DNA from: an uncultured bacterium
GTDB taxonomy: Bacteria; Krumholzibacteriota; Krumholzibacteriia; LZORAL124-64-63
Length of the DNA stretch: 64,000 bases
NCBI GenBank assembly: GCA_963732385.1
Contig: CAVSZB010000007.1
Coordinates: 320,001-384,000 of the forward strand
Reading direction: 5' to 3'
The notes under the pieces are model-generated. The model made no database searches. It had not been told where the DNA came from and saw only the letters and a program-made list of their open reading frames with translations. Positions 14,637 through 17,775 of this stretch are shown here, piece after piece. The first letter of the stretch is position 1; every line of letters starts with the position of its first letter. The translations under genes were made by a program, and so were the position numbers.

Positions 14637-14676
14637 GAGGCGCGGTGGCAAGTGGCGGCGGCGGGGTTTCTCCCTA

Positions 14677-14704
14677 GCTTAACATAATATACATTATGCG
14701 CAAT
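14677..14704 (-). other. dif: dif site (XerC/XerD chromosome dimer resolution site)
   Basis: Minus strand ATTGCGCATAATGTATATTATGTTAAGC vs E. coli GGTGCGCATAATGTATATTATGTTAAAT (24 contiguous identities); intergenic between convergent genes at the strand switch. Confidence 0.93.
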
Positions 14705-15175: not shown

Positions 15176-15865
15176 TCAGCCGGCCAGCGCCTTCAGCAGC
15201 TGGATGCGGTTTTCCAGATCGCGGGCCTCGAGGTCGAGAGCGCCGCTGTCGATTTCCTTCTGAAGCGTCGTCAGTAGATCCGCAGCGGCCCCCGGCTTGC
15301 CGTCGAGGCGGAGCAGGTCGGCCAGCAGCAGCGTGCCGTCGTAGCGCTCGCCAGCGCCGAGACCGGGCGTCTGCAGCAGATCGCGCACGGTTGTCTGGGC
15401 TTCCGGGAATCGCTTCATCGATCCGAGAACCGAAGCCTTCAGCAGACGCAGCGCATTCTTGAGACCCGCATCACCGCCATTGCCGGACAGGGCCTTGTCG
15501 ATCGTGTTCAGCGCCGCGTCGTTCTCGCCCAGGGCCGCCTGAGCCTGCGCCAGATCGAAATTGCCCTGCGCGGCGAACTTGTTGCCGCCGAAGTTGTCGC
15601 GCAAATCCTGAAGCGGCTGTTTCGCCGCCGCGAACGCCCCACGCTGCAGCAGCGATTCGCCCTGGAAAAGCAGGTAAGACGCCTTCTGCGCGGAGCGCGT
15701 CTGCCCCTGCTGCATGAAGCGTACACCGAATACGACCGCGATCACCACGAGCAGGCCGATGCCGACCCGGGAGTAATTCGCCTGGAGAAAATCGGTGGCG
15801 CGGGCCGTTCCCTCCATGAAGCTGTCGTGTTTGAGTTCCTTGCGCGTCAGCTTGTGGGTAGGCAC
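15176..15865 (-). CDS. Single-pass membrane TPR protein (YfgM-like)
   Basis: GTG start with AGGAG RBS; HKLTRKELKHDSF N-terminus, one TM, TPR-like helices. Confidence 0.8.
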   Translation of the reverse strand: MPTHKLTRKELKHDSFMEGTARATDFLQANYSRVGIGLLVVIAVVFGVRFMQQGQTRSAQKASYLLFQGESLLQRGAFAAAKQPLQDLRDNFGGNKFAAQGNFDLAQAQAALGENDAALNTIDKALSGNGGDAGLKNALRLLKASVLGSMKRFPEAQTTVRDLLQTPGLGAGERYDGTLLLADLLRLDGKPGAAADLLTTLQKEIDSGALDLEARDLENRIQLLKALAG

Positions 15866-16013
15866 TCCAGGATCTCCTGTCACGTTTCGAAGGTAAGCCA
15901 ACAAAAGATTCATGCACCGTACGCGCCTGCGCGTCAGGTGCTGCGTGCGCGAATATAGATGAACAGGGCGGAAAATTCCACTACTGCGGCACCTTCGCTG
16001 GCAGACGGCGACA

Positions 16014-16042
16014 TTGACAACGGAATGAGTCTTGATTATCGT
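16014..16042 (+). promoter_or_regulatory. sigma70 promoter driving the candidate ncRNA
   Basis: TTGACA-N17-TATCGT; predicted +1 at about 16049. Confidence 0.65.
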
Positions 16043-16048
16043 GCCGCC

Positions 16049-16180
16049 ATCAGGGGACGGTGGCAAGCCTGTCGCATCGTGATCCCTCGGCTCTGGAGCC
16101 CGATTCGGATAATCTCTGCATGAGGGCCACTGCAGGGCGCTAGAGACACGTCACGCACGCGGGTTGCTCCGCCCCCTGAT
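16049..16180 (+). ncRNA. Candidate structured non-coding RNA (6S/SsrS-like rod or novel family)
   Basis: Ends pair (ATCAGGGG/CCCCTGAT); nested helices CGG/CCG, GCAA/TTGC, CCTG/CGGG, CGTGA/TCACG, CTCTGGAGCCC/GGGCGCTAGAG; starts at the predicted +1; no convincing ORF. Confidence 0.55.
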
Positions 16181-16252
16181 AAACAAGTATCTGTGACGGT
16201 GTCGCTCAAGATTTCTGGCGCCCTCTCCCTGAATCTTGACGATGTTTGCGAG

Positions 16253-16278
16253 GCGAGCCGCCCACGGGGGCGGCTCGC
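16253..16278. terminator. Strong hairpin between the convergent ncRNA candidate and tRNA-Arg
   Basis: GCGAGCCGCCC-ACGG-GGGCGGCTCGC, perfect 11-bp stem; weak U-tract. Confidence 0.55.
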
Positions 16279-16287
16279 TGCGTTGGG

Positions 16288-16364
16288 TGGTGCCCCAGAC
16301 AGGACTCGAACCTGTGGCCCCAGGTTTAGGAAACCTGTGCTCTATCCACCTGAGCTACTGGGGC
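16288..16364 (-). tRNA. tRNA-Arg (anticodon CCT)
   Basis: GCCCCAG...CTGGGGC-ACCA; anticodon arm CAGGT-TTCCTAA-ACCTG. Confidence 0.97.
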
Positions 16365-16454: not shown

Positions 16455-16967
16455 TCAGTAATTGACAAGGGAAAAGACCTCGGCGCCTTTCAACTGCGCC
16501 CGACCCGCCAGCGCTTCCAGCTCCACCATGAACAACCAGGCGGTCACCACTCCCCCTTGCCGGACCACCAGTCGACCCGCGGCGGCTGCGGTGCCGCCGG
16601 TGGCGAGCAGGTCGTCCACGACCACCACCCGTTCGCCAGGGGCGAGTGCGTCGGCGTGCATCTGCAGTTCGGCCTCGCCGTACTCCAGCGCATAGCGCTC
16701 GGCGACCGTGGCCGCCGGGAGCTTGCCCGGCTTGCGCAGGATGATGAGCCCCTTGCCGAGCTCCGCCGCCAGCGGGGCCGCGAACAGGAATCCGCGCGAT
16801 TCGATGGCGGCGAACTTGTCGAAACGCAACGGAGTCAGCAGGTCGCGCAGCCCGGAGAGGGCCGCGCGAAACGCCGCGGGATCGGCCAGCACTGGCGTGA
16901 TGTCCTTGAACAGGATTCCCGGTTTAGGAAAATCCGGGACGTCGCGGATGATTTGCCGCAGATCCAT
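16455..16967 (-). CDS. apt: Adenine phosphoribosyltransferase
   Basis: IRDVPDFPKPGILFKDIT, ESRGFLF, RKPGKLP, YALEYG, VDDLLATGGT. Confidence 0.97.
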   Translation of the reverse strand: MDLRQIIRDVPDFPKPGILFKDITPVLADPAAFRAALSGLRDLLTPLRFDKFAAIESRGFLFAAPLAAELGKGLIILRKPGKLPAATVAERYALEYGEAELQMHADALAPGERVVVVDDLLATGGTAAAAGRLVVRQGGVVTAWLFMVELEALAGRAQLKGAEVFSLVNY

Positions 16968-16982
16968 GCCCCTCCCCCTTGA

Positions 16983-17684
16983 TCAGCGCAACAGCCGCGT
17001 CGGGCGCACTGCCTGACGCCCCTCGCGTAATTCCACGTGCAGGTAGGGGCGCGGTCCCTCGTGCGGTTTGCCGACCCGGCCCAGCTCGTCGCCCCGCAGC
17101 ACGATCTCTCCGACCCGGCAGCGACTCGTGTCGGGCTCGACTGGCGCCAGCACCGTGGACCAGCCGGAGGCGTGCTCCAGGATGATGACCGTGCCGAACC
17201 CTTCCTGAGGGCCGCAGTAGCGCACCACGCCGGTGGCGGGCGCGTGCACGACGGCGCCCAGCGGGACGGCGACATCGATGCCGGTGTGTGGCACGTGCCC
17301 GCCCGAAAGCTGCCTGTGCGCACCGAACCCGCGCAAAACCGGGCCATGGCGGATGCCGAGCGGCCGCCGCCAGCGCAGGTCCGCCACCTTGAGGCGGCGC
17401 AGCGGATCCGTGATGCGCAACCGCTGGTCGGGGTGCAGCAAGGCGCCGATGACGGGGTTGTCGCGCAGCACCTGTTGCGCCGGCACGCCAAGCAGGCGGG
17501 CCACCTTCGCCACGGAGTCGCCTGGACGCACGGTATACCAGGCGGACGGCGCGGCGCCGCGAGCCGGCGAAAAGAGCAACAGCAGCACAGCCAGCAACAG
17601 CCCGCTGAGCAGCCGGCGGTCCGACAGGAGACGGATGGGCGTGCGCAGTCGCGTGATCATGACCTCGCGTAACGGTTTCGACAT
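16983..17684 (-). CDS. LysM plus M23 family peptidoglycan hydrolase/activator (NlpD-like)
   Basis: Signal peptide, YTVRPGDS LysM, HTGIDVAVPLG, YLHVELR; downstream of surE-pcm. Confidence 0.85.
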   Translation of the reverse strand: MSKPLREVMITRLRTPIRLLSDRRLLSGLLLAVLLLLFSPARGAAPSAWYTVRPGDSVAKVARLLGVPAQQVLRDNPVIGALLHPDQRLRITDPLRRLKVADLRWRRPLGIRHGPVLRGFGAHRQLSGGHVPHTGIDVAVPLGAVVHAPATGVVRYCGPQEGFGTVIILEHASGWSTVLAPVEPDTSRCRVGEIVLRGDELGRVGKPHEGPRPYLHVELREGRQAVRPTRLLR

Positions 17685-17727
17685 CAGCGGTTCAGGTTGC
17701 CCGAGCCGTGCCCGCGATGCAAGACCG

Positions 17728-17760
17728 AAAAGACAAAGGGGCTCGCCCTGCGGCGGCCCC
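17728..17760 (-). terminator. Terminator after tRNA-Pro(CGG)
   Basis: GGGGCCGCC-GCAG-GGCGAGCCCC followed by TTTGTCTTTT on the minus strand. Confidence 0.65.
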
Positions 17761-17775
17761 ATGCGAGAAATAGTT

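Follow-up and report, generated by a model that had tools for sequence, protein, structure and literature searches.

Positions 16049 to 16180 of the window, which is the whole stretch of 64,000 nt that was analyzed, are a genuine single-copy gene for a structured RNA, which is uncatalogued and occurs phylum-wide. The gene of this noncoding RNA (ncRNA) has a promoter of its own and is located between a divergent gene for a YfgM-like TPR protein and a convergent tRNA gene, with apt and a LysM/M23 gene as further neighbors in this genome. The phylum Krumholzibacteriota is that named by the record titles, with 208 genomes of one class, and “f1” to “f9” indicate its families, f1 being that of this genome. 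In the list of features, “P” indicates the helices of the ncRNA, and the percentages are the portions of the alignment cells that are paired.

16014 to 16042, + strand: sigma-70-type promoter, −35 TTGACA, 17 nt, −10 TATCGT (sequence and homologues)
16049 to 16180, + strand: ncRNA gene, 132 nt, predicted ends (fold, covariance models, homologues)
16049 to 16074, + strand: P1, 5′ strand of the long terminal stem, pairs with 16154 to 16180 (terminal helix in 65 of 65 homologues)
16078 to 16084, + strand: P2, 5′ strand, CGUG-bulged A-UC, pairs with 16145 to 16150 (88% paired)
16090 to 16095, + strand: P3, 5′ strand, pairs with 16133 to 16138 (87 to 89% paired, double-sided changes)
16098 to 16101, + strand: P4, 5′ strand, pairs with 16124 to 16127 (92% paired)
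16102 to 16123, + strand: apical region (homologue alignment, comparison with E. coli 6S)
16124 to 16180, + strand: 3′ strands of P4, P3, P2, and P1 (fold comparison)
16288 to 16364, − strand: tRNA-Arg(CCT), convergent conserved neighbor, context only (Rfam, synteny)
15176 to 15859, − strand: YfgM-like TPR gene, divergent neighbor in f1 only (PF09976, synteny)

The promoter is positioned as the initial annotation had proposed, with TTGACA at 16014 to 16019, a 17-nt spacer, and TATCGT ending at 16042. Two such promoter sites were present in 3 kb, compared to a mean of 0.3 in shuffled sequences. The terminal helix predicted from this promoter is also there, pairing 16049 to 16056 with 16173 to 16180, with its first base 7 nt past the −10 box, and the irregular rod was found as it had been drawn, out to about 16074/16154. 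Genome-wide, a long-range terminal helix followed only 4 of 107 similar promoter patterns, the ncRNA site being one of these 4. Folding of the 132-nt segment was better than that of most shuffles, with an energy of −60.8 kcal/mol (z = −2.34) that was matched by only 3 of 200 shuffled sequences. Similarity with relatives starts at 16048. No gene on the + strand follows, in agreement with the annotation, and the next gene is that of tRNA-Arg(CCT) on the − strand; a GC-rich hairpin at 16253 to 16278, between ncRNA and tRNA, is probably the terminator of the tRNA gene. The DNA past tRNA-Arg(CCT) is often swapped for unrelated genes, such as those for OPT and MFS transporters or a family of short open reading frames (L404:5367-6300; L007-L033), which is consistent with an insertion hotspot. 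A dif-like site, which had been placed about 1.3 kb away, was located at about 14682 (14675 to 14702) and is single-copy in the genome; the cumulative GC skew of the contig, C7, plateaus nearby between 340 and 440 kb.

Four metatranscriptomes were represented by contigs only, which indicate neither ends, strand, nor level and possibly derive from DNA. A 960-nt contig from one of them (X1) originates from a relative, covers 15300 to 16210 plus yfgM, and shows 92 differences and 8 gaps to the window; the contigs of the other three (X2 to X4) left 15910 to 16275 uncovered. The literature searches, mostly outside subscription journals, listed no report on such an RNA from Krumholzibacteriota. The main text of a survey of prokaryotic noncoding clusters (bioRxiv 10.64898/2026.10.21.760802) does not mention the phylum, and its supplements could list the family as an unnamed cluster.

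With the Rfam models, the window yielded only tRNAs at the gathering level and the ncRNA just chance matches at E values up to 10; the same search with 20 homologues likewise gave just chance matches, and neither the ncRNA nor these homologues matched 6S at E values up to 10. The absence of SRP, RNase P, and tmRNA signatures agreed with this result, with copies of all three elsewhere in the genome and no match of the ncRNA to their models. The 5S rRNA copy of the genome is likewise located elsewhere, with no Rfam match here, and a resemblance to 5S rRNA was dropped because the families do not share the helix that it implies and no Rfam match exists. For a Y RNA or YrlA, there was again no Rfam match, and a search of the genome, which is 96% complete, yielded no Ro60 (TROVE, PF05731). 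A riboswitch or leader was rejected since the loci compared contain no consistent same-strand gene downstream.

The family was assembled by searching with DNA sequences and with two covariance models and by comparing synteny. The model R2, searched against 143 genomes with at least 88% completeness, matched 60 of them; one partial match with an E value of 0.49 was discarded, leaving the ncRNA as a single copy in 59 of the 143 Krumholzibacteriota genomes. By family, with the genomes being kin and the counts not independent, R2 matched 11/11 genomes in f5, 8/8 in f8, 11/13 in f4, 22/28 in f3, 1/1 in f9, and in f1 this genome plus 5 of 64 others, to which a separate model search added one further f1 copy. 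No matches were obtained in f2 (0/3), f6 (0/10), and f7 (0/4), and reading of the syntenic site revealed diverged copies in two of the four f7 genomes, which the model had missed. At the loci examined in f2 and f6, no copy was found beside tRNA-Arg or SpoIIE; because the model had also overlooked the two f7 copies, diverged ones may exist there. Conservation was found in at least seven families of the phylum and includes promoter, terminal helix, and core. Viral contigs contained no family member, nor did 80 metagenomic loci around relatives of the neighboring sigma gene or 20 loci around 6S genes in other phyla; in the phylum to which G211 belongs, 121 genomes gave two chance-level matches without promoter and no more. 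A motif scan of GTDB returned at least 120 stretches, at least 16 of them true, and those with a title or a checked handle were all within the phylum (40 of 120 were untitled).

The lengths of the 65 matches ranged from 118 to 145 nt and were evenly distributed over the three reading frames. TTGAC occurred at promoter distance in 58 of the 65 homologues (43 of 43 in a smaller set) and a −10 motif of TATAAT or TATACT in 37. All 65 possess a terminal helix of at least 5 bp, with a median of 8 bp and differing sequences, followed by a U-rich tail in 34 cases. The z value of the fold was below −2 for 51 of 66 copies. In f1, seven genomes from six genera harbor copies with promoter, terminal helix, and core.

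The conserved core pairs in 89.7% of the cells of a plain MAFFT alignment of 38 homologues, a value not reached by any of 500 shuffles. A double change was found in 13 of the 21 core pairs of this alignment, with several pairs being nearly invariant and some double changes in P5 coming from misaligned f1 rows. Core pairing was 91.1% on a model-fitted alignment of 63 sequences, which leans toward the model. The MAFFT alignments misalign the terminal stem so that RNAalifold could not be used on them. An inner helix (16091 to 16101 with 16135 to 16145) and a CGTGA/TCACG pairing, both part of the original drawing, belong to the minimum-energy fold only and are not conserved. Their register paired in 61.5% of the cells of the 38 homologues, with 30 of 500 shuffles as high. 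The conserved register costs just 1.1 kcal/mol more in this genome and is energetically favored in 35 of the 38 homologues, so the inner helix was rejected for poorer pairing as well as for its energy. That the locus encodes a structured ncRNA that stands alone, has its own promoter, and is missing from Rfam is supported by the conservation in at least seven families; the inner helix is not confirmed.

Between the strands of P4, the homologues contain 24 to 32 nt, with about 3 nt on the 3′ side. The apex of most families is composed of an AU-rich single strand and a conserved 5-bp hairpin, P5, which is degenerate in this genome; P5 is present outside f1, and the apical hairpin motif occurs in 0 of 91 f1 genomes. 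Sequence conservation peaks in the loop between P3 and P4 and in the apical hairpin, which 6S RNA does not have. A 3′ hairpin induced by a product RNA (pRNA) could form in 87% of the cells, showed zero covariation, and was rejected.

The ancestral gene order is SpoIIE phosphatase and ncRNA in one direction, facing tRNA-Arg, apt, and a group-2 sigma gene in the other. In f3, f4, f5, f7, f8, and f9, the ncRNA comes after a SpoIIE-type phosphatase gene and a tiny peptide gene. It faces tRNA-Arg and the group-2 sigma gene in f3, f5, and f7, with apt between these two in f3 and f7; in f4 and f8, the downstream neighbors differ and the ncRNA keeps its own promoter. A rearrangement in f1 separated the ncRNA from the phosphatase and the peptide genes, which are both elsewhere in this genome. 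Of 143 genomes, 57 contain the neighboring group-2 sigma gene (f3, 23/28; f4, 12/13; f5, 10/11; f7, 4/4; f8, 7/8; f9, 1/1) and not in f1 (0/65), f2 (0/3), or f6 (0/10). Family by family, this distribution matches that of the hairpin-bearing form of the ncRNA, a link that rests on about two sigma losses in a quick tree. Exceptions in single genomes were seven in f1 with the ncRNA and no neighboring sigma gene, and two in f7 with the sigma gene kept and no ncRNA found. The models for RpoS and RpoD score about equally on this sigma factor, both below the cutoff; it is labeled “RpoS-like” because its gene stands after surE, pcm, and nlpD, which is the gene order of proteobacteria. Six families have the group-2 sigma gene between nlpD and apt; it is missing from the corresponding place in the window, 16455 to 17762. 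Another group-2 sigma is shared by f1 and f6 with 60 to 94% identity, and none of the remaining families tested has a close match to it. None of the three other group-2 sigma factors of this genome tracks the ncRNA in f1.

In a tree quickly built from 30 RpoC rows, with f5 and G022 left out, f1 joins f6, and the ncRNA is located on both main branches, which suggests that it is probably ancestral in the Krumholzibacteriota. It has probably been lost or become undetectable at least five times, four of these in sigma-less lineages. Five f1 genomes are cleanly devoid of the ncRNA beside yfgM. In the tree, at least two losses fall within f1.

The canonical 6S RNA of this genome is encoded at G000:C7:316449-316622 (L001, 61.7 bits), 3.5 kb before the window and about 20 kb from the ncRNA, and 37 of 40 relatives tested also have theirs at a separate locus, so the ncRNA is not the housekeeping 6S. 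It does not reach the gathering threshold of RF00013 and, with 118 to 145 nt, is no rod of about 160 to 200 nt with a two-stranded central bubble. A long apical arm with a −35-like region is absent, the 5-bp hairpin being there instead, and the score against the 6S apical arm is low. The likeness lies in the closing arm. Three landmarks of 6S occur in the same order and with similar spacing: a CGUG/CACG helix, a GCC/GGC helix, and then an AU-rich strand; the motif of P2 is also present in the closing stem of the 6S alignments. A covariance model made exclusively from 30 6S RNAs aligned f3 members in the conserved register, with P4 on the helix that closes the 6S central bubble and a local end replacing the apical arm. 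Of its matches of at least 85 nt, 10 of 11 were on the sense strand; its scores for the family were at most 7 bits, below those of many background hairpins. A profile comparison in which two modules were matched to the closing arm of 6S, devised after the resemblance had been noticed, beat 92 to 100 of 100 block shuffles in four settings of this post hoc test, and the 6S apical arm scored far below the closing arm. There was zero cross-match between the family and 6S with nhmmer, and aligning the profiles once, locally, gave no significant score, which was equaled by 24 of 60 shuffles in one case and 10 of 60 in the other. When sequences were tested individually, only 6 of 38 scored above all of their 12 shuffles; f1 was not represented among the 6, and just f3 and f4 showed a slight excess. 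The third base after P4 is a pyrimidine in 30 of 38 rows, a weak indication since the rows are related; in this genome, this position, 16104, may be the counterpart of the pRNA start in the 6S RNA of E. coli (L163). The sequence kinship of the closing arm to 6S is thus borderline. Of the initial proposal of a compact 6S-like RNA, the resemblance in the closing arm remains, and the central region that had been drawn is not the 6S-like part.

The ncRNA shares with 6S RNA (RF00013), including second copies such as 6S-2 of B. subtilis, the stand-alone rod, the joined 5′ and 3′ ends, the bulged helices, and the motif order of the closing arm. It differs in being about 50 nt shorter, in the missing long apical arm, a 3′ bubble strand of about 3 nt, the lack of an Rfam match, and cohabitation with a canonical 6S at another locus. 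As described in PMC8876501, 6S has two key elements for holoenzyme binding, an arm that is −35-like and a 3′ bubble strand that is −10-like, and both are missing or tiny in the ncRNA. The same source reports that B. subtilis 6S-1 reduced to the bubble and two short arms binds and makes pRNA, with about 10-fold lower affinity. Such engineered truncated versions of 78 and 82 nt are, like the ncRNA, without the −35-like arm and still bind RNA polymerase and produce pRNA, but they keep both bubble strands and have two short arms, whereas the ncRNA has a long closing arm and a far smaller apex (PMC8876501). Short alphaproteobacterial 6S RNAs (156 to 160 nt; L492, L501) also possess a naturally shortened apical arm, but with a full bubble and a score above the Rfam cutoff. 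Ms1 and CoRP, as presented in PMC11077062, are lineage-restricted, bind RNA polymerase, and escaped 6S searches, with CoRP located among tRNA genes; in contrast to the ncRNA, which occurs beside 6S, these actinobacterial RNAs of about 300 and 516 nt are reported to be present in place of 6S.

The leading reading, to which a probability of roughly 40% was assigned, is that of a 6S-derived RNA polymerase decoy with weak or selective binding. It is based on the stand-alone promoter with a U-rich tail in 34 of 65 homologues; on the ordered landmarks, the register chosen by the 6S model, the two-module test, and the function of truncated 6S-1; and on the ancestral synteny with the sigma gene together with the matching distribution of the hairpin form. 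A constitutively promoted, rod-shaped RNA of 120 to 145 nt, descended from or convergent on 6S, would have retained the downstream closing arm with P2 to P4 and with the unpaired bases at the start of the template strand, with the 5-bp hairpin in the place of the long −35-mimic apical arm. It would act as a weak or selective decoy of RNA polymerase, perhaps of the holoenzyme with the neighboring RpoS-like sigma factor, and might serve as a template for a short antisense product RNA. Gene, promoter signal, structure, distribution, and synteny were established by the comparisons, and 6S ancestry, polymerase binding, and sigma preference are inferred; the ncRNA is probably a variation on the 6S theme. 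Contained in the estimate for the 6S-derived decoy is a special case that is itself unlikely: a natural “half-6S” beside the canonical 6S, decoying the RpoS-like holoenzyme in a phylum-wide stress locus of SpoIIE phosphatase, tiny conserved peptide, ncRNA, and sigma factor.

Nearly as likely as the decoy is an unrelated new RNA family, which would bind or titrate a protein other than RNA polymerase via its internal loops and apical hairpin, with a likeness to 6S by chance. The highest conservation in parts that are missing from 6S, the lack of significance in most of the direct kinship tests, and the 6S already present in these cells would fit this explanation, but no partner was identified, Ro60/TROVE was not found in this genome, and the borderline match of the closing arm and the sense-strand bias would have to be coincidental. 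The linkage with the sigma gene could alternatively point to a base-pairing small RNA, as are DsrA and RprA, which would control translation of the RpoS-like sigma gene or of another mRNA. The ancestral linkage and co-occurrence at the family level agree with such a function, which is nevertheless improbable: most of the conserved bases take part in pairs or lie in small loops, and antisense action on the sigma leader was not supported as the duplex energies with the 5′ region of the sigma gene were no better than those of random windows in 11 of 11 genomes, with the 5′ arm being used instead of the apex in two of them.

Because apical hairpin and sigma gene are both lost here, this genome may contain the ncRNA in a reduced or decaying state. 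That it is a decaying remnant of a family functional elsewhere would explain the lack of the hairpin motif throughout f1 and the repeated clean losses beside yfgM, but retention of promoter, terminal helix, and core in six f1 genera argues against it, as does the copy in the relative G001, which is 92% identical despite a diverged promoter spacer; this possibility was judged to be about as improbable as the base-pairing small RNA. Least probable is an element acting in cis or at the DNA level, such as a terminator, riboswitch, tRNA antisense unit, or dif-linked site, or a small coding gene. The adjacent tRNA and the distance of 1.3 kb to dif in this genome would agree with a cis element, but the ncRNA promoter persists while the downstream neighbors change in f4 and f8, and most loci have no same-strand gene downstream. 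Coding is disfavored by the even distribution of lengths over the three frames and by about 40% of the copies being without an open frame on a strand.

At a minimum, the ncRNA is an uncatalogued structured RNA family over most of a phylum, for which promoter, fold, and pattern of losses are defined. If the 6S-derived decoy indeed binds RNA polymerase, it would be a natural counterpart of the truncated 6S so far only described in vitro (PMC8876501). Cells with 6S would then contain a second polymerase-binding RNA of different architecture, compared to the one type per species proposed in PMC11077062, and the tuning of a 6S-type RNA to an alternative sigma factor would become a testable question.

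Directly downstream of the SpoIIE phosphatase gene, an open reading frame of 14 to 20 codons possesses a strong ribosome-binding site and is followed by a terminator-like hairpin. Its product has a near-invariant end that resembles I-D-L-L-W-W-L-R. There are 46 distinct versions in six families (for instance at L014, L075, L093, L102, L363, L364, and L367) plus one in this genome, outside the window (C7 near 176,800, L508). The small open reading frame accompanies the phosphatase and not the ncRNA, and its product looks like an unannotated small membrane peptide.
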